From Orbicella franksi (taxonomy: Eukaryota): a stretch of 64,000 nucleotides of DNA. A model generated the notes under the pieces. That model did no database searches. It had not been told where the DNA came from and worked only from the letters and a program-made list of their open reading frames with translations. The first letter of the stretch is position 1. Each line of letters begins with the position of its first letter. The position numbers were made by a program, and so were the translations under genes. Shown one piece after another: positions 48,811 to 64,000 of the stretch. Location of the stretch: the NCBI GenBank assembly GCA_964199315.1, contig OZ116707.1, positions 8,122,001 to 8,186,000 on the forward strand, in the 5' to 3' direction.

Positions 48811-49375
48811 GCAAAATCTAACAGAAATAAATAAAAATTTAAAGAGGACGCGAAGTAATATGAAAATAAGAGCCATGAATAGGAACAATTAAAAGGACCC
48901 AAGACACGAAGCTTTCAATTACAATACAATTGCTCTACCTCTTGTTGGCTTCTTTAGTGAAACAACCCTTTCTTAGCAACTTAAACATCTTTTCAGTACA
49001 ACTCAAAATGTCAAGCACTATCGAAAGAGAAAGCCACTTTAAAATCATGGGTTAATCCCAAGATGATTATACAAAAGGTTTCTAAACTTATTAGTGTTTA
49101 AATGGAAACAATGTCAAGCAAATTAATTACAGCAAACAAGTGTTACATGAAAAGATTTGCAAGTCATGTCGGGATTCAATTTTATCTTTAGTTAACTTTT
49201 ATTTTTCATTTTTAACTTATCACCATGCAAAAACATATCTAAAACCAAAGAATAATAAAGCAGAAGCGTATATAAAATTAAACTTCAACAGCTATATAAA
49301 CCAGTCAAAAAAAAGCACTTTTATTTGGAAATTCATTTGTTTTAAAGGAAAATAATTTAGATTATTAATACTGTT

Positions 49376-51293
49376 TTAAGGATATAAACACTTCACGCAT
49401 TCATTTATTGCCAGCTTGGAGCTTGATCTTGTAGCTGTGGAAGGGAAACCACCCTTTCTACCAGGATTTTTTGGCATTCTGTTTTGGACAGTCAAAGAAA
49501 CATTCATGCTTCTCTTTGCACATGACTGTTTGTAGTGGTTAAGAAAATCAAGCAATTCCCCATTTTGCTGCACTGTCGCAACAGTATGGGAGCAAATTTG
49601 TATGCTATTAAAATGTGCACAATTTTTCTCACACCTATATTCTCCCTTTTGCTTCCTTGGCATGACAAGACGGCGACGTTTCTTATATCTTCAGCTCTCA
49701 ACCATCCGAGCTTTTTTTACCACAGCCTGGTGCCAGCACAACTGCATTGTTTTTGCCTAAAAGCACTATTGATTTTCCATAAATACCCTCAACTGTGGCA
49801 TCTGGTTGGTTTATCAAATGTCTTGAAATCTTTCAGAGGGATCATGGTTGTTAAATTTTTATCGTGTGCTGGCTCTGCAGACTCTTTTCTGTGACTTAAC
49901 ACAGACATTGCTGCCTTTTCTAACATTGACAACCCAGACACACCGACATTCTCATCTTTATCATCTTCATCAAAGTTAAGTACATCCATAATTGATTCCT
50001 CTTGTGATTCATTTTCTGGCTCTTCCACAGGTAATGCCATTAGGCTAACATTAGACCGAAGGACCATATTTATGTAGCCATCTTTTTCATCACTCATCAG
50101 GAAGATCTATTCATCCTCTGCCATTTCAAGGTGTTCCAAACTAGGATGCAATTGGTAATGCCCTTTATTTATGATTGCCCAGCGGGTATTTCGTGCCTGT
50201 CTTTCACAAAGTCTTTGCATCTTTGCAACGAATGAATCAACTGGTGATTCGGTGTGGTCAGTTTCTCTGCTGAGGAGGCTGTTACCACACTCTACCCTGT
50301 TTGTAAAGAATGCTTGTGGAGTCTAGCTCGTATTCTTAGAGGTCTGAGCATTGTTGCCTTCATCAAATCAGCCTTGTTTTTTGCAAACCATGTGTGGAAT
50401 TGTAAACCTTTTTCACCCTGTGGTTCATTCCAAACACCCTCTAGTCTCTGTAGACGTGCTTTGAATGCATCCATGTCTTCAGAATCGACCAAACCCTCTT
50501 CAAATCTAGTACCCTGTCGATTTGATTTCAGCTTATTTTTAAGAGTTGTAAGGGTGCTTTTTTGTGTGCGGGTATAAGGCTTTCTTTGTAGTGTCATTTC
50601 TGTGTGGCATTATTATAAACTGGTGTTCATCTTCAGTCAATTGATACTCTACTTTTGTCAAAGAATGTCTCTTGCCTTTATCATCTGAAAATATATAAAG
50701 AATAATTCAGCAGGTTGAAGTAAGAAAGGAATATAAAGGCTTAGAAAGCCATACATAATTGACTTTACATTTGCTGCTGAGAAATTTTGTCAGTCATGGG
50801 AATACTGGGTACAAATGTAGGAAGAGCTGGGGTAGGGAATCTGTGCACAAATTAAGGGAAAGCACTTCAGCTAAGTTTTCCTATTTCCAATGCTGCTGGG
50901 TTATTTTTTTCTGGATAAATAAGAGAGGTCTTGAAGACATCTCTAAAATAAAAGACTTAACTGTGATGAAAGAGACAATTCTGTGACAATCGTTGGCATC
51001 CCGGTTGAAGTAATAGTGTGTGTGCAATGTCACCCAAGTCCAACTCAGACTACTTGTGTCGAATGATGCTCTTCATCTTACCCTTTGGTAATATCCCTCA
51101 TCATTCTTTTCGTACAGCAGTGAAACGTGTGCTGGCCATTATTAATCCAAGAACCAGTATCAGCTGACAGTACATCAGCTACGTGTTTCAACTTTGATGT
51201 GTCAACAACAAAAGCTTTGTTTTGCATGACCTTCCTTGGAGGTATCGTGAGATGAGATGAGATGCAGTTGGCAGTTGGCAGTGTAACTGTCAA
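49376..51293 (-). pseudogene. Internally deleted MULE-like, SWIM-containing transposase remnant
   Basis: N-terminal NKAFVVDTSKL..DTGSW; PHRN..KPYTRTQKST; FEEGLVDSED..RLEGVW..FHTWF..MLRPLR; SWIM CEKNCAHFNSIQICSHTVA. No DDE core is visible. Confidence 0.5.
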
Positions 51294-52298
51294 TGTTACG
51301 AGAGTTTCCGCAACTGCCTCCTCCTTTCTCTCTTTGACATGTCACTCTTCGATTTCAGGCTGTTGAAAATTGGGAGTCGTTTGTCATTCTGATGGTATAA
51401 CTGGCTACGAAGAAAAAAACAACATGCTTTAGGGTAGCTTCTAAGATTTGCAAACATCACACGATTTGTGGAAAGGCGCTGTTAACATCGTGAAATTGTT
51501 TTTGTGGTCACTAACTTATGTATTCAACAATAAATGACTGAGTGGTAACCAGTAATTATGGTCTGGCTTGCATTATAAATGGGTTTGAGACTAAGTAAGT
51601 ACTATAGGTTGATGACATTACATCTCGTATACACTTTAAGATGTGGGTGAATAGCGCACCACTTACCTGGAAGTGAACAGTGATTTTCGTAGCGATTGGG
51701 TAATGGATGTCGCAGTCTGTCTTACTTTTTTGCTTCCTTTAATGGGTGAGTCATCATTTGAGCTCAAAACCACTCAATCAGTCCGTCAGATCTAATACAC
51801 TTTGGCTCTGGCACAAAGATTTCAAAAGATAATTGAAGGATATGATTTACTTTTTTATCTAAGGAGGAGAGAAACTTTGTATTTCAATACCAATTCTCTC
51901 CCCTCATAGGCTCCTACTGATAAATAAACAAAAGAATAGATTCATAAAAAAGCGTGTGGATGGAACAGTGATCCCACTGAATTGAATATTACTATCGATG
52001 ATTTAACAGCAATGAATTGTATGTCAAAGTATCATGATGTGATGTTCAATGGAATTCTAGCTGGTATTAAGTTGAATTCAGGAAGAAACGTCTTCTGTTG
52101 CTGTTTCTGTGGAAACTCTGTAGCTAGAGAATATCTGTTACATTAGACCTGAAAGGGAAGGCACTAGTTTATTGTAGCATTATACCTCCCATATGGCAAT
52201 TATCAGTTACAGAAATCGATCGAAACAGAATTTATTGCTTTAAATCGGTAGACAGGGCTTTGAAACTAGTCTCATTAGTTATTACAAATTTAATAAAC

Positions 52299-54766
52299 CT
52301 TTACTCATGTTGCAATCTTTTACATTCTAATTTTCTTGTTGCCATTCTGAGAAGCTTTTCATTTCTATCTGCCTCATCTTTGGTGTCGGAAATAATGTAA
52401 CGTTGTAATCACTACCCTGAAAAAAACATTGCTAAATTGAAATGTTGAGAGATCGTTGATTCTTGATCTTTCTGGCTTTCCTGCAGCTGCAGCTTTTTAA
52501 ACAGTTCATGTTTCATTGCATTCTTGTGTTTCCTCTAATGAAGAAATAGCCTTATATCTGTCTTAAAACCTAGTACAAAGTCACTTTGAAGCGACTTAAG
52601 CATAAGTCAGGATTTATGGGATTAGTTATTGCAAAGTATGCACATATCCTGACATACAGTAACGGCTTGATATGATCATACATTCTATTATGTTCACACT
52701 GACTATACTGCAATACTTCGTTGTGTACTTAACCTTTAAGGGATCGCAGCGTTCGCAGGTTTCACTTTTGATCTGGAATTCGGCGTCTACTGACCCGCCT
52801 TTCCACAAGCTTTTTTCTGGGTTGTACTCTTCCTTCCATTTGCTTTCCCAGCATTCCATCTTGTTATTCTTTCTAAGCTTCTAACGGTGAGATAACAAAT
52901 AAAGAAAACAAACATGTTTCATGTGCAAGCAAAGCATAAATGATCTACAATTTTACTTACCCATTTTTCCCTCTTTTTGAAACCCTCCTCAATGACTGAT
53001 CTCTGGTGTCTGCTGTGTTGTTTCAGATATTGTTTCTTTACGCTGTAGAAAAAAGCATCTTCTTGTAATAAACTGTGAGAAGTTTTTACTTGCTCTGTAT
53101 TCCAGAGGTTACATGATTGTATAACAACAACAGAAGACAGGAGAAGAAAAATTATTTTTATTAGAAAGTTGTGCAAGCCAGTCTGCAACAGTAAATATCA
53201 AATGCACAAAAACAAAATTCCATTTGCAACTCCTCAGAAACATCTTGTAACAGCCAGCAGAAACTAAAAGCTACATGACATGCAATGCAAACGCATTTCT
53301 GGATCAACAGAGTACATGACTTTGTAGCAACTACGTAGTGTATGCAGTATTTACTCAAAACTAATAAAAAAACTCAACTTACCTTTTGGTACCAATACTT
53401 TTCAGTGTCAAATTGCACAATGCTACTGAATCAAGCACTGGTTTCACAGGGATAGAGGTTAGTGGAGGACCTACATAATCAAGAATTCAAGAAAAAAAGA
53501 TATTATGATCCAGGAGTATCTCATTTCATTGCTTTGTTACATATCTCTTCTGAGACAACAAAGAACTTGGCTTTTTATAACCTACAGCCTGTATGTATAA
53601 CGATAAAACAGCATGCAAAGGATAAACATTGTAATAAATTGCCGAATGTACGTCTCACCTCCAAGATGGCATTGCCGTTTAGCACAAGGAGCATCATCCT
53701 TCTCTAATCTCATACTTGTCGTTGCAATTGCTGGTTTTTTTCTGTAAACAAGGAAGTATGGTTTGTTTCCAAATAAGTACACTGAAATAAATATTGCAGA
53801 AACAGGTCACCAACACATTCTCCAATTGACACTGACCTTCTTTGCCTTTCCAGAGAAAGAAGATGACCAGCAAATTCTGATTCAGTGGTGTACCCACACT
53901 TGATCTTCGTGGACACCCAAGAAGAGTACAATACACTGTAACGAAATCCTTCAATGACCCCTTTGCTAGACGTGACTACACTGCTTTTACGAAGTGTAGA
54001 TTCATTTGCGCCTGCTTCCAGTTCGACGGCCACCATGGCCTGACATAACAGCAAATAAACAAATCCCTTCCAAATGCCCCAAACAGCAAAGATGTAACCA
54101 AAAATTGTAACAAAAACAAAGAATGGACGTTCCTCTGACCAACTGATGATATCGTTGCATGCGCCAAACAAGGATGGCTTTGATTGACAGAGATAGTATA
54201 TAGATTTAGCCAAGCCTAAAAGCGGAGCTCCTGATTGTAATAACTGACGATAAAGGAAAGAGAAAATTATTTTTTCTTGGATCAGAAACCCAAAAAATGA
54301 TCATTTGTGAGCATGTAATTGTTCAGCATGTGGTTTTGCTAGTTTTTCCAGTTACATTTTAACAAACTATACCCAACAATCCTAACCAAGATTGGAGAAA
54401 TTACATGTGCAATATATCAGGGACTTTCCAAGAGACGATTGTACAAGGAATATGTCAAAAGAAAAGTCAACAACACTCCAGGGGTTAATTTGCACAACCT
54501 CGATGAGCTCTAAACCTGAGCCCGCGATATAGTCATGTGATACTGGTCAGCAGATAGCTTGTTGTGACAGCTGTCAATTAACAATAGTGTGGATGCCCAA
54601 AATCAAAGATGTAGTTATGGTAATGGTGCTACTTTGTTGGTTTTCAAGGTATTGGTGTACAGTCACGTGACAACCAAAATTTTTCAGATCGATGGGTTAC
54701 CAAATTTTCTAAGGTATGGGGCTCCGCTCGAAGGCATGCAGGAGCTCCGCTATAAATCACTGTCAT
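52299..54766 (-). pseudogene. Orphan multi-exon gene for a hydrophobic, Cys-containing membrane or glycoprotein
   Basis: ATG at 54766; exon ends 53383 | 53042-52961 | 52880-52734 | 52416-52299, all GT-AG and phase-compatible through the fourth exon. TM-like FFVFVTIFGYIFAVWGIWKGFVYLLL; sequons NES, NHT, NLT, NVT. Confidence 0.55.
54199..54754 (+). mobile_element. Non-autonomous Helentron/DINE-like element
   Basis: 13-bp subterminal IR AGCGGAGCTCCTG (54221-54233) / CAGGAGCTCCGCT (54739-54751); 3' GCTCC..GGAGC hairpin; no TSD needed to restore the host frame. Confidence 0.55.
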
Positions 54767-54977
54767 AACCGCTTGACAATTTTGAAAAACTTTGCCAATT
54801 CTATAAAAATTTTAGGTGTGCTAATGTGCATGCTTCACCTGTGAGCTGCTCTTTTAAAAGTGCTAAGGAAAAAATGTTACTCTCCTCACCTCTTTTAAAA
54901 TGAATATAACTTTTACTTGTCACAGATATTTTTATGCTTGTATTTGCCAAATGAAAATATTTCCCACAGTAGCACTT

Positions 54978-57900
54978 TCGTGAATATAAAATTGATGACA
55001 TAGAACACATGGACAGGCTGACTCCATGTGTTTGGCTCAACATTCTGTTGACCCACACTGAGAAATTCTGGGCCTGGTAGTGACTGTTAGGCTGGAAGTG
55101 GGCAATTACTGCTCCTTTAGTTCCATGTACATGGGAGTCAATAATGAAAAAAATGCCACTACTGTCCACAATAATTAACAGTGCCATCTCATGTACCAGC
55201 AAAACATGCAAGGATGGGCATTACTGTGACAATGTCCTAACAGCAGTGTTTAACTGATCCAAGGGGTTAGCACCAAATGCATTGTATTCACAGTACACTT
55301 GTTCCTCTTGACACTGGTCTTAAGCTAGTTCTATTCCTTCATCAACAATGACATGAACATCTTTATCAAAAAGCTGATCATGAATGCTATTTCTAGCTAT
55401 TATGGCATGTTCTAAAGCAGTCTGCCAGTGAATGTTCAGATTCTGTTCCACTTAAGTGTTATCCAGGTTACACTGCTGATAAAGTAAACCAAAATTACAA
55501 GCAATGAAAATGCAAGAATTTCTTCCATTTTGGTTGCAGATTGTTGACTGTGACATGTTGAGGGGGAAATACCACTCTGTTACTCCAGTTCCTACATTGG
55601 CTCCCAGCAAGTCAACTTGCAATGCTGAGGTTGGTTGAACAGATTGCATAGGGCTGACAATTGAAGGAGGAGAAGGCAGTGAGGTGACACTGACAGCAGA
55701 TGCTGGAGAGGAAGGTGGCAGGATGTTGGTAGTCAGAGTGGCAGCTAACGATGAGGTGGCAGAAGACTGGCTGTTTGCATTCAGAGTGGATGCTGAAGTG
55801 GCAGAGGGCTGACTGTTTACATTCTGAGTAGCAGAAGACATGATAGAAGGCCGAGTGTGTGCATTTGGTGTGGCAGCTGAGGTGACAGAAGGTAGAGTGC
55901 TTAAATTCTGTGTAGTAGCTGAAGTGGCAGAAGGCTGACTGTTTACATTCTGAGTAGCAGAAGACGTGATAGAAGGCCGAGTGTGCATTTGGTGTGGCAG
56001 TGAGGTGACAGAAGGTAAAGTGCTTAAATTCTGTGTAGCAGCTGAAGTGGCAGAAGGCTGACTGTTTACATTCTGAGTCGCAGCTGTAGTAGCAGAAGAC
56101 TGGCTGTTTGCATTTGATGTGGCAGCTGAGGTAACAGAAGGTAGAGTGTTCAAATTTTGAGTAACAGCTGAAGTGGCAGAGGGTATGGTGTTTCCACTGA
56201 CAGATGCTGCAGGGGATGTACTGGAGGTCAACTGTCCCTGTAGCTGTCAAAGATCTGCTGCCAATCTCTCGCTTTTCCTTCTTCGCTTTTGGTGGTAACT
56301 GCTCCACCAGCTTCTAATCTGATTGTTTTTCAACACAGCCAGCCCTCTTTCCCACATTGCTATGATGCAGTCTGCAGGACCTGCACAGACTCCTTCACTT
56401 GCTTGTCTGTCGTAAAACTGAATCGTTACCTCTTTTTGCTCAGTGTTAACTGGAATAACAGGTTCTGTGGCATGCTGAATAAACTGGATGCTGTATGGCT
56501 CTCCAGAGTAATTTCCTCCATCTGTCAATGAGAGATAGAGCTCTTCTGTCATGATTGCACCAGTTGCTCCTGCAATAGGGCATGATCGGCTGGCCAGAAC
56601 TTGGACTTGAGCCTTGGTCTTCTTAAGTTCTTTCCCCACCCCAGCAAGAGATCGGGCAATTAGTCCGCCACTTTGCTGACCAGCTGTTGGAAACTAGAAG
56701 TTCCCAAAAAGGGATATATCTTTCAGTGCCCCAACTTTGTTTGGTGCCTTGGCTCTGTCTGTGTTCGGCTTATGGCACTAGACATTCTTAATTGCCTATG
56801 AAACAAGAGGCTCCAAGTAGCCTATACTCATGCGCAAGAGAATAAGTCATATGAAATAGATACACAATGCGTACATAGTCAGACAAGCACTTTGAAAACG
56901 TTTGCCATCTGACAACTAGAAATAACACAGCAGAAACGCTAATTTGAAAAAAGTTCATCAGAGATCTAAGATATAGATAATTAAGATGCAGGAGAGAAGA
57001 TAAATGTTGAATGCAATATGCCATCTTTATTACAAGGATATCATCAGGCGAATAACTAAACAAGCGAAGTCGAAAAATTACAGATAGAGAAGTAACAAAT
57101 GATCAGACTTGCAAATTGGATGAAATATCTTTTTTCATAGCAGTTCTGAACTAAATCTCTTTAGGCATTTTTTGTTCGTGTTAGACTTGTTTATGTTGGT
57201 TGTTAGGAATATATTCCAGTACTGGGCCATTGTAACAAATATCAACTTTGCCTTTTTTTATTATATTTGTAATTTGATTTTAAAATACACTTGAAACTCG
57301 ATAAAATAACAGTACTCCTCAGTAGGCACCTGGTGTCTCTTGTAAGTTACATCATGCAATGCCATATTTCCGAGAATTAAAATATTATTATACATATATA
57401 TATATATATATATATCCTTAGACATGTTGCTAAAAATGTAATGTTTCAATAATTGATACAAAATGCAAGGTGTACTAGACTAACCAAGAAGCAGGAAAAG
57501 AAAAAGGAAAAAAAATTAAACACACAAGTGTTTTATTACCTGACATTGTTCATCACATTCTTCTTGACTTGAGCAATTTCAGTTTTTAATGGACACAAAC
57601 CTTGTACCAGAATAACTTTAAGTATATTACAGTCCTTTTTGCATTTTCTAAAAGCTAAAGATATAAACAGTTGTCTGAAATAACACCAAAAACACTTTCT
57701 CATGGGAACTCGAGCAAGTAAATTTCAAAGTTCAGAGGAATTGTCAGGTTAAATGTGGGTAAAATTTCATCATCAGTTTCATTTCACCAGTACTTTCAAG
57801 TGTTTCATATATTACTTCAAAATTTATTTTCTACATTTGGTGCTGTTAGAAATGATTTCTTTTGAGAAGATATTTAAAAGAGTTGCACAGAAGTTTCCAA

Positions 57901-60900
57901 TAATCTCAGTAAAACGTTTTAGTCCGCTTGTTACTCAAACTTTTGGTGGATCCCTTCTTAACACCTAAGCTAGTATATAACTATAACTGAACTGAACGAC
58001 TTTAATCTGCATTTGATAATGGCGACAAGATAACGCCGAAATGTCAAGTTATAGCATTTATTTTTCTTTTATAATAATTTCTTTGTAACCAAGTATCTTT
58101 TGGGATTTGAGGGACAAAAGAAACTTGAAAATTTTGTCCTGAAATCCTCGGAGACATGCTAGAATATTGATATACGGTATATCGAACATGGCCTATTACC
58201 TGCCCATTTTGTTGAACACGTCCATTTACACGAACAGGAAGCATTTTTTGACCAAAAGATCAAGTACACAGAGCACGTTCTTAGTAACTGATTCTTCGTA
58301 ATATGTCCTTGATTCTCCAAAACCCTAATAAATGTGAGACTTGTAATATTGTCAGATGGCGATCAACACAAACAATGGCTTACCTCTCCAGAAACACTTT
58401 CTTGCTGTTCACGGATGCTCACATGCCAGTTCAGAATCTTTAACACGAACTAAAGTACTGATAGGTACTTTCACACCGTATCAAATTGAGGAAAAAGCAC
58501 AATGCTTGCGAAAAAACAGCACCTTCTTGAAGAATCCAATATGGCGGACAGAGCTCCAAAGACCATGGTAAATGTATGCATGCATAAATTTGCATGCACA
58601 AATGTGACACCAAAACGGAGAAATGCAGCCCAATCCTTAACTCATGCGCCATACTGTGCATGAGTAAATAGCAGAACAAAATGGAAAGCGAGTAGTTAAA
58701 ATTTGTAAAATGACAACAAAAAATATTATTTGTCTTGGTGATATCCATACCTGCATTAGGAGTTGAGGACTTTCTCTATGAGACATCCTCAAAATTACAT
58801 AAAATTGTTAGGCTACAGGCAAGTGAAATTTGCAGGAAAATTCAAATAGCATGAGCAGTATTAATCATCATGACATTTTAATTGTGCACCCAGCAATAAC
58901 ATTTCAAGTATCCAAGGGTTTCTGGAGTGAGGAGTCACCAGGCATAACATCTAACTGGAGTTTTCATTTGAAATGCACTTTGCATGTGGGGCTTTTGTTA
59001 AGGCAGCTCAACATAACTTAAGAGTTTCCTCATCCATTAAACATGTTATGGACATTCTATAAATGACATTATTGAATAAGGCAATGATGCATACCCCAAT
59101 TATCTCTCCAAGCTGATTTTGTGTCTCCAGGTTGTTGCCAACTTGCACCCAATGTACTATTTTGTGGCTAACATGGGCAAAATGTGTGTCAAGCTAGGAC
59201 TTTCCCTTTCCTCTTCAGAAGTTATTGTACTCTACTAAGGTTAAATCAAATGCTTGATTTACTTTGGCCAGGTAGAGAAGGAGGCCTGAATTATGGTAAT
59301 GAGGGACATTATCTGCTGCAATAAAATAACATACAAACAACCCAAATTAGAATAGAAAATAGTTTTCTCAATATTGATATTTCATATCAGCACATTCAGA
59401 CAATCATCACACATGACAATGTGACTCTATGCACAATAAGAGAAAACAGGGTCCTGCAGACATTACCACGCACAATTCCAGGTTATTCACACGAGATCTG
59501 ACAGCTACATTTCACAGTCATGGCTAAAAAAGAAGTCACCAAGTCTTGCACCAAACGTGCAAAAATACTGCTTTGAAATCACATATAGTAACAAAATGTT
59601 TTGTCACACATACTTATTTCTGTTCATGAAATATAATACAAGAAAATGTAAGGCCAGTCCAGCAGCCAATTATGGTAATAATAAACCAGAAAACAAGTAC
59701 ACTCTAAACCCAGGGAATGATTGTTGGAGCCATGAAAAGCCACATCCATGGCACTCTGGCTGAACCAAGAATCTTGCTTGGTGTCCTCACACCATAGGTC
59801 CAGCACCTCACTAATTTTCTTGTTTTCCTCAACTTGGGCTCGGGCAAGGAGGCCATGGAGAGATATGCCTCTCTTCCCATACCAGTCTCTTTGAATCTCA
59901 TGAAGATGCACACCAAGCTCAAGTGGTTTCATCTTGTAATCAATGATTACCACTGCTTCGCCTGGTTGGAGATTGTTGAGCACAAATCTGTGGTAGTCTC
60001 CTTGATGCTTGGTTCTCAACAAATGACCAATATACAACACACTGGAGGTCATCACTTCCTTCAGCTCCTCTTTCAGTCTGTCTCACTCAGAGGTATCTGC
60101 TATCCTCCTTATGTGAACGTTCACAACCTTCTCAACTTGAACCAATGCAACAACATCAGGGCAAGACAGCAATTTTCCTGAACTGGGTGTTAAGGAACTG
60201 CTGATGCTTTGTGACCTTTGCTTTCTCTTCTTTCACTGAGATAGCTGCATTACATTCAATGTCATTCAACAAAGTTTGCATGTTGTCATAATTGGAGTGA
60301 CCATAATCATCACAAAGATTGCAAAGTCCTGCCAACATTGTGTCAGAGCGAAAGCTTGGTGGAAGATGGCTATAAATATATGTTCTCTTTACGCCATTAG
60401 GAAACTCTAACAGGTACTGGTTAACCAGGTTTTTGATGCTATCTTTCCAATACCTGACTGGAATGTCTTGATCATTAATAATGATGCTCCTGCAGGATGA
60501 AGGTCTTGACACTTCATCCCTCATGAAGAACTCTGGATTCATGCACTGTCGTTGGAACTTGCACTAGGATGGCAGGGTCCCACCATGACCAAAGAGAATT
60601 GCATGCACTCTGGCTGCAGTGACAGTACACGGAGAGCAACCAAACTGTTCTTGCAGAAACCGATATGTGTAATCCATGGCAACAATGGGCAAAAACCTCC
60701 TCCATTCACCTGCAAAATATGTCATTCTTCCAAAAGATTCAGCAGCAACAATCCTGTTCTTAAATGCAGAAACACATTTCTTGCACCCAACTATTTCAGT
60801 GATTAATTGAGGCAAGTCTGTTTCTTCGAAAACTACAACTTTCAAAGTTGCTTGTCTTAAGGTGTCAATTATTTCACTTCTGATTTCTCTCTGGCCACGT
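54978..60900 (-). pseudogene. Spliced Sola3-like DDD transposase fused to a homeodomain-like HTH, Ser/Thr repeats and a herpes-tegument-like cysteine protease
   Basis: LAGLCNLCDDYG; IDYKMK..QRDWYGKRGISLHG; FS|DNVPHYH; GKGKS*LD. Exons end 59687 | 59312-59095 | start 56795. IRSWWSSYHQKRRR; SQSTICNQNGRNSC; IIDSHVHGTKGAVI. Confidence 0.65.
58010..58048 (+). ncRNA. Degenerate hammerhead variant (U3-A8), solitary Penelope-end remnant
   Basis: CAT-TTGATAA-T-GGCG-ACAAGATAA-CGCC-GAAAT-GTC-AAG. Confidence 0.45.
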
Positions 60901-61544
60901 AAACTTTGATTTTTATATGAATAAATAAGAATTCAAATATATGAATTGTTGATTTTATACGGAATTATTGTTGATCCTCAGTCAAAAATATCACTACATA
61001 TGCCATTTTCGATCTTGATCATGGGTTGTTGACCAAGATTTGCCTTGTTTGTGTGCAAATGTTTGAATCAGTGACACAAAATGAAAATATCTAAATTTAT
61101 TGGATGCTGGATCATGGCAGCTATTGGGTATCAGGATGAGTTAACATTCCACAGCAGTCAAATGCTATGAAAGAACAATTGTTTGGTACCTAAGAAAGGA
61201 AACACGAAAACCCTTTTTTCTCCTTGCATTTATTGTTTCAATTCTTTGGTGAGGCAATATCAATACGAACTAGGATATTTCTCTATTTCGTGACTGCACT
61301 CGTGGATCAGCTTGTTTTTGTGCACATGGATGGAACATGACACCACAAGAATGATTGTATTGAGATAACAGCAGATCCATACCATGCAAGTCTTGTGCGA
61401 AATGACATAATTATAATCAAGGTACATATATCTGCTTTCAAAAGCTCAGTAGCAGTTGTTATTTTCTAGTGACTTTTTTAATATTTAATATGATTTTTTT
61501 AATATTTTTTCATATTAATATTCGGTAATTAATATTTAATATTA

Positions 61545-63520
61545 ATGGCAAGAAATCCACTGTACAGTGCATCTGGACTTGGAAATGAGGAACTCATCAA
61601 TACAAGCACCCCATTTGAAATACCAGGTTTATTTTCTGAAATTGAGGCCATAACTTCACATATCAATGCCCAAGTTGAAGACAAGAATCAGCTCATTTCT
61701 GTTAAGCCAGTGCCTGATTAGGCAGCAGTAGACACGTCAGTAGGCAAACTTACTCTTAGTCCAACTACCTTGCTTGATACTGAAGAGTATGAAGCAAGAT
61801 CTATAGACATCTGTGACTACATACAGCTGTTAGAGCATCCTGAACTGTTTGCCAACCCAGAGCAAAGAAGAAGGGAAGTGCAGGGCTTGAAGTTAACTTT
61901 TTCGTTCAGAAGCCAGCTAGCGACTAACAGAAAAATTTTGGTCGTCACACCATAAATTTTGGTTGTCAACTTATTTTATATACAACTTACACAAGAATTT
62001 TATATGGTACTTTGCAGGCAAGAAAAGTCCCAATTGAAGAGCAAAAACAATTAGAAACAACACGAGTAACACTTAGTTATAAAGCTACTGTTGTTCTCAG
62101 GTAATATGTCTCTGGTCCGAAGGTGACAGTTGTCTCCATAGTCATTTTAAATGAAGCATAGCATAAAACATTTCAAGTATGTGGTTTTCATTGTAAGACA
62201 AACACGGGTCCTTGCATATTTCTTCAAAATGCCGTTCTTTATTTTCAACTTGCTTTCCTCAACGCCTTTCGCTGCTGACAAACAATGAATGAAGGATTCA
62301 AAGTTTGGATTAACCTTTTGGCTGAACCTTCATTCCCTGCACCTAAAAACTCACGTAATTCCTTCAACTGATTGGTATCTGTCACTATTTTTGCAGCAAA
62401 TGAAAAGCACATGGTGTTGAAGTGCACTTGTGATCCCAGTTTTGGAAGAAGCTGCTGAAACAATATGGCGTGCCGTGAACACAGTATCGACATATCGAAA
62501 TACATTCAATTTTTTCGATTATCTTGTAATATTCAGACATTATTTTACTGGGTGAAGGGTGAGTTGTATACTAGCTTCCATATCCAATTGATTTCCTAAT
62601 ATAAAGATTTAAAAACAAAAGTTGTGTCGTGGTTTTCTTTAGTTATTGGGCAGAATGCGAGTTGCCAGCTGGCAACCAGTTCTGAAAATTTAGCCACCAG
62701 TGCTCAATTTTTGGTCGCATTGGCAACCAGTGAGGTGCAATTTCAAGCCCTGAAGTGGAAAATTAACTTTCAGAAATTCAAGGTGGTGGAAATCTTACAG
62801 AAGATCTGGTGACATTACCAAAACGCTTTGAAAATGTTACTGAAAGCTACTAAGAAATGTTCCCAGCTGCAAATGAGAGTTTATTGTTCTCCGGAAGTGA
62901 AGACAAAGATGTACAGAAGCACAACAATGAGGATAAACCACTCTATCACAATGCCTCACTGACCATTGCAGAAACTGTTCTACTGGTTGGTACATTTCCA
63001 TTAGATACACCCTTTGGATGTGCTATGAATGATTTGCTCATCCTGATTAGTCTTCATTGCATCAGGGCTGATTTATGCCGCACATCTCTTCATCAGTTCT
63101 AGCACTTTTTCTGATCAATCAAGAGTGCCCTAGTATATCATCGCTATTGCTGGCATTGCTTTTTACCCGTTGATGACAGAGCAACTGAGACTTGTCAAAA
63201 CCATCTGTACTCAAAGGATCTAACTGAGAGTAAGTCTTGTTCTTTCTTCATTGAAGTGGTAATTGTCTCACAGATTTTCCATTTGTTTGCTGATAGTGGC
63301 CTCTATGAAAATTTGACACATCGTTTTAGAAGGACCTAAACAAATGTTAACCACTTTGAAGACATTTATGATGGCACTGAATACAAAATTCACTGCAATT
63401 CTGGGATTTTAGATTTCCAGCAAAACATTTCGTTATTGTGGAACGCAGATGGTGTTCCAGTGTTTAAGTCATCAATTTTCTCCACATGGCCATTGTACTT
63501 TGTAATAAACGAACTTCCCT
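61545..63520 (+). pseudogene. N-terminal part of a second CACTA/EnSpm transposase, interrupted at 61881-62752
   Basis: PLYHNASLTIAE, DLLILISLHC, YCWHC, FEDIYDGTEY, ISLLWNADGVPVFKSS..WPLYFVINELP. Confidence 0.75.
61881..62752. mobile_element. 872-bp hAT-like non-autonomous element with a 5-bp TSD
   Basis: CAGGGCTTGAA / TTCAAGCCCTG TIRs; AAGTG at 61876-61880 and 62753-62757. Confidence 0.75.
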
Positions 63521-64000
63521 CTAGTGGTCCCTTCATGGTTGATTTCAATATCCATATGCTTACTGCACCTTTCAATAACATGCGGACTTTAAAATTGAAA
63601 GCTTAACCAACAAATGCCTTTTTTGCAACAGTCAATCAAATGTTCGGCGGCTCCTTCCAACTTCTGACTACTGCTGAGCACTGTTTTGTTGTCTGAACTG
63701 TGCTGAACGATTTGATTACCGCATACTTGGTAGTAGTGGGAAGCTGGGAGGAGCTGCCAAACATTTGATTGACGGCAGCAAAAAAACGCATTTGTCAGTT
63801 GAGCTTGAATTTTACAGTCCACATGTTATTGAAAGGTTCAGTAAAATAAACCAGACATCATCTACAAACAATTTTATGCATCAGCTGTTTTCATATTCTT
63901 TCTATCCTCTCATAACTAAGCCAACCGGAATAACAGAAAGGAGTGCAACATTAATCGATAATATATTGTAACAAATAGGCTAAGCAACAATGACTTACTG
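63520..64000 (+). mobile_element. LINE APE-endonuclease fragment split by a MITE
   Basis: FMVDFNIHML|KINQTSSTNNFMHQLFSYSFYPLITKPTGITERSATLIDNIL. Confidence 0.7.
63563..63841. mobile_element. 279-bp MITE with ~110-bp imperfect TIRs and TA TSD
   Basis: CTG(C/A)ACCTTTCAATAACATG.. arms; TA at 63561-63562 and 63842-63843; removal restores the APE frame. Confidence 0.8.

Follow-up and report, generated by a model that had tools for sequence, protein, structure and literature searches.

The window analysed here is a 64,000-nt stretch of the coral Orbicella franksi (GenBank assembly GCA_964199315.1, contig OZ116707.1, forward-strand positions 8,122,001 to 8,186,000), and in its region 54,978-60,900 it holds a decayed, end-truncated relic of a coral cut-and-paste DNA transposon, the intact relatives of which encode a Sola3-related transposase and a cysteine protease of the viral-tegument-like (VTD) type. 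All exons and introns of the relic lie on the minus strand. The remnant of a large transposase exon (59,687-60,926) carries an N-terminal region, the first catalytic Asp (59,939-59,941, within IIDYKMK) and the motif EIQRDWYGKRGISLH (59,855-59,899); its 5' end is cut off, it is damaged by one stop, by the loss of ~57 codons and by two frameshifts, at about 60,160 and 59,740, and an intact relative (P0202) matches it in three frames at 76-89% identity (tblastn). It is succeeded by a phase-1 GT-AG intron (59,313-59,686; donor TTTTCTG/GT at 59,687/59,686, acceptor CAG/ATAAT at 59,313/59,312) that interrupts the codon of the second catalytic Asp, and by a 218-nt exon (59,095-59,312; 75% identity to the exon of the intact copy C2) which contains the motif DNxxHYH with this second Asp, a GK-x-x-LD motif in which 59,188-59,190 probably encodes the third acidic residue, and two in-frame stops. 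A phase-0 GT-AG intron (56,796-59,094) leads from the exon end GGG/GT to the acceptor ATAG/GCA at 56,795, from where the last exon runs in a single frame (no frameshift, 6 in-frame stops) through the transposase tail (56,442-56,795; 41-48% identity to other copies), a helical, homeodomain-like helix-turn-helix (HTH) block (56,250-56,441, core at 56,277-56,318) that lost its N-terminal arm by a 29-codon deletion relative to P0025, a linker rich in Ser, Thr, Ala and Pro (55,593-56,246) that varies freely between families, being rich in P/A or in Q in other copies, and the C-terminal VTD protease domain (54,981-55,592; three in-frame stops, 43% identity to the C2 domain). The catalytic codons of the protease are found at 55,548-55,550 (Gln), 55,512-55,514 (Cys) and 55,131-55,139 (Asp-Ser-His). 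The split Asp codon, the phase-0 joint to 56,795, the broken but continuous course of the last exon and the placement of Gln and Cys had been proposed in an earlier, sequence-only reading and were all recovered; two details needed correction, as the linker repeat, put at ~10 amino acids, has a unit of 14 (42 nt x 10.3, 55,752-56,180, Tandem Repeats Finder), and the coordinates given for the motif IIDSH cover DSH only. In total, the window copy has accumulated at least 9 stops, 2 frameshifts and two in-frame deletions, and the 5'-most exon of the intact gene is missing from it. No close DNA copy was found in the genome, nor were an HTH_40 or F-box remnant or an inverted end found beyond the protease. 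Assembly error as the source of the stops was ruled out, since the same 6 stops occur in a metagenome contig that is 99.8% identical to window positions 47,908-57,694 (the individual sampled is maybe not independent).

The splice positions and phases of the window copy recur in the other copies inspected, and both of its junctions are spliced in RNA of the C2 copy (G000:C2:8,526,059-8,536,781), which argues that the splice structure is not due to chance. The C2 copy has open exons throughout: its last exon is free of stops over 548 codons from the transposase tail to the protease, and its joined exons form one frame of 1,256 amino acids, in which a Cys-rich N-terminus is followed by the Sola3-like core (D562, D646, E678/D687), the homeodomain-like HTH (near residue 917), the low-complexity linker and the C-terminal protease (Q1066, C1078, D1204, H1206). 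A stop-free last exon (592 amino acids, 72% identity to the window copy) is also present in P0025, which comes from another assembly and is the closest relative of the window copy (sister at 100/100 in the protease tree). For expression, we used 4 of 24 listed RNA runs (three polyA raw-read runs and one contig run), while 10 of the 14 RNA-labelled contig runs were left out, being coral metagenome libraries with 0.84-0.89 of all words, introns included; reads were placed on the C2 copy at ≥88% likeness, so that their source may be any close copy or other individuals. In two of the three raw-read runs all three C2 introns were joined at GT-AG, with 4 and 4 reads for the 5' intron, 2 and 4 for the Asp-splitting intron, and 9 and 5 (plus one contig) for the joint into the last exon. 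Read depth was continuous across this last exon, and no listed joint skips the protease. In the contig run the last two joints are spliced and the 5' intron (L082:8371-9620), which is removed in the two raw-read runs, is kept; this could reflect regulated splicing or DNA in that library. Furthermore, a public Stylophora gene model (P0232) is spliced over both window introns, and in 3/3 copies checked that have an additional intron separating HTH from protease, the phase of this intron preserves the frame, while S-D-N-G-P-H-Y-H stands unsplit in Rhizophagus (P0240, P0241) and in cnidarian gene models. No protein with core and protease on one chain was found among 34 and 57 'longer' protein matches, which mostly stop at exon borders and look like intron-blind gene calls. 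Taken together, the open C2 exons and the RNA joints that chain them support a single spliced chain of transposase and protease in the intact relatives, as the sequence-only reading had suggested, and not a protease exon that is a gene of its own.

The protease domain of C2, modelled from 40 aligned rows, reached a pLDDT of 93.4, and a structure search (VIA; 48,161 chains) returned three deubiquitinases (DUBs) as its top matches: DrT1-VTD2 from a Helitron (8ADD; Z 19.0, root-mean-square deviation (rmsd) 2.7, 177 residues aligned), M48 of MCMV (2J7Q; Z 15.9, rmsd 3.3, 179 aligned) and Wc-VTD1 of Waddlia (8ADB; Z 14.9, rmsd 3.2, 167 aligned). VTD entries also occupied ranks 1-4 in Foldseek (E 8e-7 to 1e-4), and a profile built from 15 rows matched Wc-VTD1 at E 2.5e-5. 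The herpes-type (C76-like) identity proposed from the letters alone is thus backed by fold and by profile. As neither Pfam (no matches for the window's protease domain, the other element pieces or the transposase exons) nor single-sequence phmmer against PDB (no match with the protease) gave anything, the link to VTDs is visible only through profiles and fold. Among ESM Atlas clusters, the top ones (cosine 0.95-0.96) had PF04843 in 11-73% of their members, with a recognition value under the threshold of the tool. The catalytic residues (Q18, C30, D156 and H158; Cys at a helix start, Gln upstream) are invariant in 15/15 and 40/40 aligned domains, and when the set is widened to 46 rows, Cys and His are still invariant and Asp and Gln are kept in at least 90%. 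A conserved acidic pair is seen in the motif V-[DE]-[DE]-A, a candidate counterpart of Asp376/Glu377. When the families C12 and C7 were compared, the ratio of nonsynonymous to synonymous substitution (dN/dS) was ~0.10 in the protease, ~0.12 in the tail and ~0.20 in the F-box gene described below, values that are rough with dS near saturation; at about 0.1, the protease is under purifying selection. Both model and protein end with strand 199-207 and lack a C-terminal alpha-9 helix. An extra helix of this kind has been linked to K6 specificity in VTDs (PMC9741609, excerpt), and its absence makes a herpes/Helitron-type specificity the better guess. According to the Discussion of Erven et al. 2022 (PMC9741609), every VTD characterized so far acts on ubiquitin by cleaving it; judging from the model, we infer that the coral protease is a DUB, possibly also a deneddylase, of the herpes/Helitron type. 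A weak search of viral contigs with a single-protein query gave 14 pattern matches, none of which was confirmed as a close relative of the protease.

The acidic core of the transposase, which by its motifs would be of the RNase H type, was compared by eye with the Sola3 hidden Markov model (HMM) consensus (supplement of PMC5751038; compared as text in part, with states 1-16 and 43-68 outside the comparison), and agrees with it in three motifs and their spacing. The motif after the first Asp (E-I-Q-R-D-W-Y-G-K-R-G-I-S-L-H in the window copy) fits states 21-36 (r-E-k-q-s-d-y-f-g-k-k-g-i-s-l-h), S-D-N-G-P-H-Y-H of the intact copies keeps D-N-x-x-x-Y-H of states 93-100 (s-d-n-a-G-c-Y-h) with G replaced, and F-E-A-G-E-G-K keeps E-A-x-x-G-K of states 124-131 (f-s-E-a-Q-n-G-K) with Q replaced. 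The same genome also holds canonical Sola3-type elements (DWAMK, DNAGCYH) that are nearer to the consensus, and in a core tree of 22 rows the 7 canonical rows were split at 100/99 from 15 others (coral rows with a VTD, those of Glomeromycota and a further two from corals); this tree has no Sola1/Sola2 outgroup, long branches meet at the split, and L095 (failed motif parse) and the window copy (frameshift) were omitted. Sola3 elements are said, in a description by Bao et al. from 2009, to generate 4-bp target duplications with a preference for TTAA, and to have termini that reportedly begin with 5'-GAG. None of the five complete elements delimited here has such termini, as all begin with GTAA. 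On account of these ends and of the lineage being separate from the DWAMK-type elements, 'Sola3-related' would be a safer label than canonical Sola3, and the tentative Sola3 assignment of the sequence-only reading stands in this restricted form. In short, the coral element shares with Sola3 the three core motifs, their spacing and the 4-bp TTAA-type duplication, and differs from it in the motifs themselves (DYKMK / DNGPHYH / EAGEGK versus DWAMK / DNAGCYH / EPQxGK), in its 27-28 bp GTAA ends, in its C-terminal VTD and in its two accessory genes. The HTH block, with 19 invariant columns in 7 copies, is conserved and helical, yet the homeodomain likeness proposed in the sequence-only reading is weak: PF00046 is matched in 4/7 members at a best E of 0.04 (14.2 bits, cut-off 22.9), and BarH-like homeodomains at E 1.8. 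Two further groups of loci were observed, namely a second, DYMMK-type lineage without VTD (L101, L102) and the canonical Sola3-type elements (L104-L116), of which L104 has long inverted repeats.

The closest non-cnidarian relatives of the core are found in Glomeromycota, and an excerpt of PMC5751038 reports fungal Sola3 only from Rhizophagus of this group. P0239 (Diversispora epigaea) and P0240 (Rhizophagus irregularis) share ~30% identity over the core and the motif D-N-G-P-H-Y-H with the coral element. By eye, a stretch like the coral tail comes after the core of the fungal proteins, and P0239 has a C-terminal helical block like the coral one. In contrast to the coral element, their core is unsplit and no VTD is found in the annotated proteins. 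A single-sequence fold of P0240 gave no usable model (pLDDT 33).

At least 54 matches to the protease are present in the genome. The 218-nt exon has 28 close matches, and for 20 of these a same-strand VTD lies downstream at a distance of no more than 10 kb. Two of the remaining eight (G000:C4:9,888,709-9,892,819 and G000:C14:21,534,588-21,542,623) are internal-deletion derivatives that have lost the protease and kept the 3' end with the F-box gene. The five delimited elements (10,715, 10,802, 10,793, 10,636 and 8,028 bp) have inverted ends of 27-28 bp, starting with GTAA in 5/5, and target duplications of TTAA/TTAA in 4/5 and TTAT/TTAT in 1/5. Three copies that are 97-98.6% identical have unrelated flanks and undamaged duplications (TTAT/TTAT in one case), and therefore the lineage has moved recently; many other copies, that of the window included, are decaying. 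Named homologues of the element proteins come from stony corals and anemones, and it is to these that this Sola3-related, autonomous lineage belongs. A Helitron/Helentron identity was rejected, as the C2 open reading frames (ORFs) have no Rep/helicase Pfam match and the elements have inverted ends and 4-bp duplications. PiggyBac and Kolobok also use TTAA; no piggyBac Pfam match was found in the C2 exons at E 0.1. A tandem cluster of five partial transposase-exon copies was observed at G000:C14:10,614,000-10,653,000.

Behind the protease, near the 3' end of the full elements, we observed a divergent gene pair (L024:572-1312 and L024:1673-2068), of which the first encodes an F-box-like protein with leucine-rich repeats (LRR; PF12937, E 1.3e-4, just under the cut-off) and the second an HTH_40 protein (PF14493, E 1e-9). 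By visual comparison of coordinates, the 22 HTH_40 matches and the 9 F-box matches are all located within these elements or next to them, and the HTH_40 ORF has 140 matches in public proteins, the named ones being from corals. F-box proteins in general act as adaptors of SCF ubiquitin ligases, and the F-box/LRR gene probably encodes such an adaptor.

We consider it likely that the window holds a decayed copy of a Sola3-related transposon whose intact kin produce a spliced transposase-HTH-linker-VTD chain, and that the protease of this chain is a tethered DUB. Several observations weigh against this interpretation. On the side of the protease, sequence identity to the solved VTDs is 9-16%; AvrPphB, a protease that is not a DUB, matches the C2 model at Z 13.6; the alignment to 8ADB spans the Cys and Asp-x-His stretches only, without mapped ubiquitin-contact residues; and the cut-off of Pfam PF04843 (C76), the family to which the sequence-only reading had pointed, was reached by 0/15 members (best E 0.056, in one member). 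On the side of the transposon, a VTD was found in 0/16 of the 10-kb loci with a canonical or more distant core and in none of the annotated proteins of the fungal relatives, so that this domain is not required for Sola3-type transposition in general. As for expression, one of the three raw-read runs had nothing on the gene (15 reads, all in repeats), no single read spans from core to protease, the junctions have 2-9 reads each from one study, and the HTH_40 and F-box genes are at depth ~0-1 in the raw reads.

The low identity to known VTDs, the AvrPphB match and the lack of a PF04843 match would also suit a real fusion in which the protease is a YopT/AvrPphB-like enzyme that cuts its own chain, thereby freeing or switching on a part of it, or a host protein, for which the long disordered linker could carry the cleavage site. 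We regard this as unlikely, since the top three VIA matches are DUBs, the linker is not conserved between families, and the Asp-x-His order is that of VTDs, whereas YopT-type enzymes use Cys-His-Asp (PMC9741609, excerpt). Another possibility is that the last exon is mainly expressed alone, from a Met at its second codon, as a tail-HTH-VTD regulator or repressor, with the long fusion as a minor product. Such a Met is present in the C2, C12, C7, C10b, C14 and C5 copies, the last exon has a greater read depth than the exons before it, and one RNA-labelled contig retains the 5' intron. However, of the three joints the one into the last exon has the strongest read support, polyA libraries are biased towards the 3' end, no clustered start is seen among those listed, the window copy has Ile at this position and the fungal homologues run through it unbroken, which makes a separate product quite improbable. 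That the protease, HTH_40 and F-box genes were domesticated or passively captured and serve the coral inside old transposon remains would fit the purifying selection, the expression and the fusion of VTDs of the same subfamily to Serinc-type proteins, but it is very hard to reconcile with dispersed copies at 97-98.6% identity with intact inverted ends and duplications, with the decay of many copies (including that of the window) and with the confinement of all HTH_40 and F-box matches to the elements or their immediate surroundings.

If the protease is indeed a DUB tethered to the transposase, the acidic core would cut the element and paste it into TTAA, and the protease could strip K48 and K63 chains from the transposase, thereby shielding it from K48-linked degradation; alternatively, its target could be ubiquitin on chromatin or on repair factors at the cut site. 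Either activity might result in a longer life of the transpososome or in shaped repair. Similar protective or editing roles have been proposed for the VTDs of Helitrons (PMC9741609, excerpt), and a similar role in transposition for the OTU and Ulp1 domains of Ginger1 (PMC2836005, excerpt). More speculatively, the F-box protein may join a host SCF ligase, so that a restriction factor is eliminated or proteins of the element itself are modulated, in which case the element would both write and erase ubiquitin.

The same protease subfamily has other carriers. At six loci (L083-L085, L091-L093; e.g. G000:C7:23,820,266-23,821,190 and G000:C10:8,654,786-8,655,770) a VTD stands in one open frame behind a different transposase-like sequence, an upstream exon of which matches PF21787 at two loci (E 5e-4 and 1.4e-3, below the cut-off), in keeping with a P-element type. 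At L086-L090, and in the 988-aa protein P0175, the VTD follows a third transposase-like region with a RING-like finger; this type, to which P0116 also belongs, forms a multi-copy family in this genome, and by its motifs it may be Academ-like. Furthermore, five Serinc membrane proteins (P0084, P0094, P0112, P0114 and P0148) bear a VTD at their C-terminus. The 11 Sola3-fused rows cluster together in the protease tree (98/98) and the other two transposase sets are not clearly resolved, the labels of L084, P0037 and P0087 having been assigned by likeness to labelled neighbours. In P0181 (Oculina), another domain is followed by a VTD-like end whose catalytic motifs are altered. We put forward, tentatively and as a possibility of somewhat less than even weight, a cnidarian Sola3-related multi-gene element with a two-way ubiquitin toolkit (DUB, F-box/LRR and an HTH_40 resembling the RecQ C-terminus), together with a VTD subfamily that would have been grafted repeatedly onto the C-terminal ends of three unrelated transposases (Sola3-related, P-element-like and RING-bearing Academ-like).

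A multi-copy repeat of ~560 bp (54,193-54,755, no strand assigned) lies directly downstream of the relic, and the truncated 5' end is adjoined by an unrelated repeat on the plus strand (60,966-63,524; 80-86% match to G000:C10:16,984,964-16,986,631), itself interrupted by a multi-copy insert of ~870 bp (61,881-62,752). Elsewhere in the window, on the minus strand at 47,037-48,466, a SAP domain (E 3e-6) and a YqaJ nuclease domain (E 4e-7) are encoded by ORFs that overlap and that presumably resemble accessory genes of Kolobok-type elements. A broken ORF on the plus strand (62,754-63,606) has no Pfam match, and its motifs resemble those of EnSpm/CACTA transposases. An inverted-repeat insert (63,560-63,844) and a tandem array with a period of ~490 bp and four copies (20,192-22,209) were also observed.

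Among known systems, the VTD DUBs (DrT1-VTD2, M48 and Wc-VTD1) share with the coral protease the fold, the Cys at a helix start, the upstream Gln and the Asp-x-His motif, and those of Helitrons are, like it, borne by transposons; the coral domain differs in its fusion partner, which is a cut-and-paste DDE/D transposase instead of RepHel or a tegument protein, and in its 9-16% identity and position outside PF04843. The presence of VTDs in Helitrons (Erven et al. 2022, PMC9741609, excerpt) and of Herpes_teg_N in Helitron-like elements (PMC11417382, excerpt) has been described. The Ginger1 and Mutator elements with C-terminal OTU or Ulp1 domains (PMC2836005) likewise combine an intron-containing cut-and-paste transposase with a ubiquitin or SUMO protease, but belong to another transposase superfamily and carry another protease class, and an excerpt of that work names no F-box or HTH_40 accessory genes; such Ginger1-type fusions, with a proposed role in transposition, are known from Hydra (PMC2836005, excerpt). 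In excerpts of Erven et al. 2022 (PMC9741609), cnidarian VTDs are reported as fused to several transposon-associated domains, and Sola is unmentioned there. We found no description of a Sola3-related transposase combined with a VTD in the open literature, Repbase and subscription journals, which may already record it, being outside the search. The theme of the transposase-DUB fusion was known (Ginger1 with OTU or Ulp1, Helitron with VTD), and the variant of it that is new in this search is a three-gene element in which a VTD-fold protease is joined to a Sola3-related transposase.

The window copy itself is a dead relic and of value as a pointer only. The element to which it leads puts a name to one of the unspecified cnidarian VTD fusions of Erven et al., widens the range of mobile elements with herpes-tegument-type DUBs, and adds an F-box gene on the same element. 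As it is intact, spliced and recently mobile in other copies, the role of its protease can be tested by exchanging a single residue and measuring transposition by standard means, a test that Helitrons allow less easily. Ubiquitin and SUMO proteases (Ulp1, OTU and VTD) recur on transposases, and if the two-way toolkit and its repeated grafting onto unrelated transposases are real, they would suggest that hosts defend themselves against transposases by way of ubiquitin and that the elements counter this defence.

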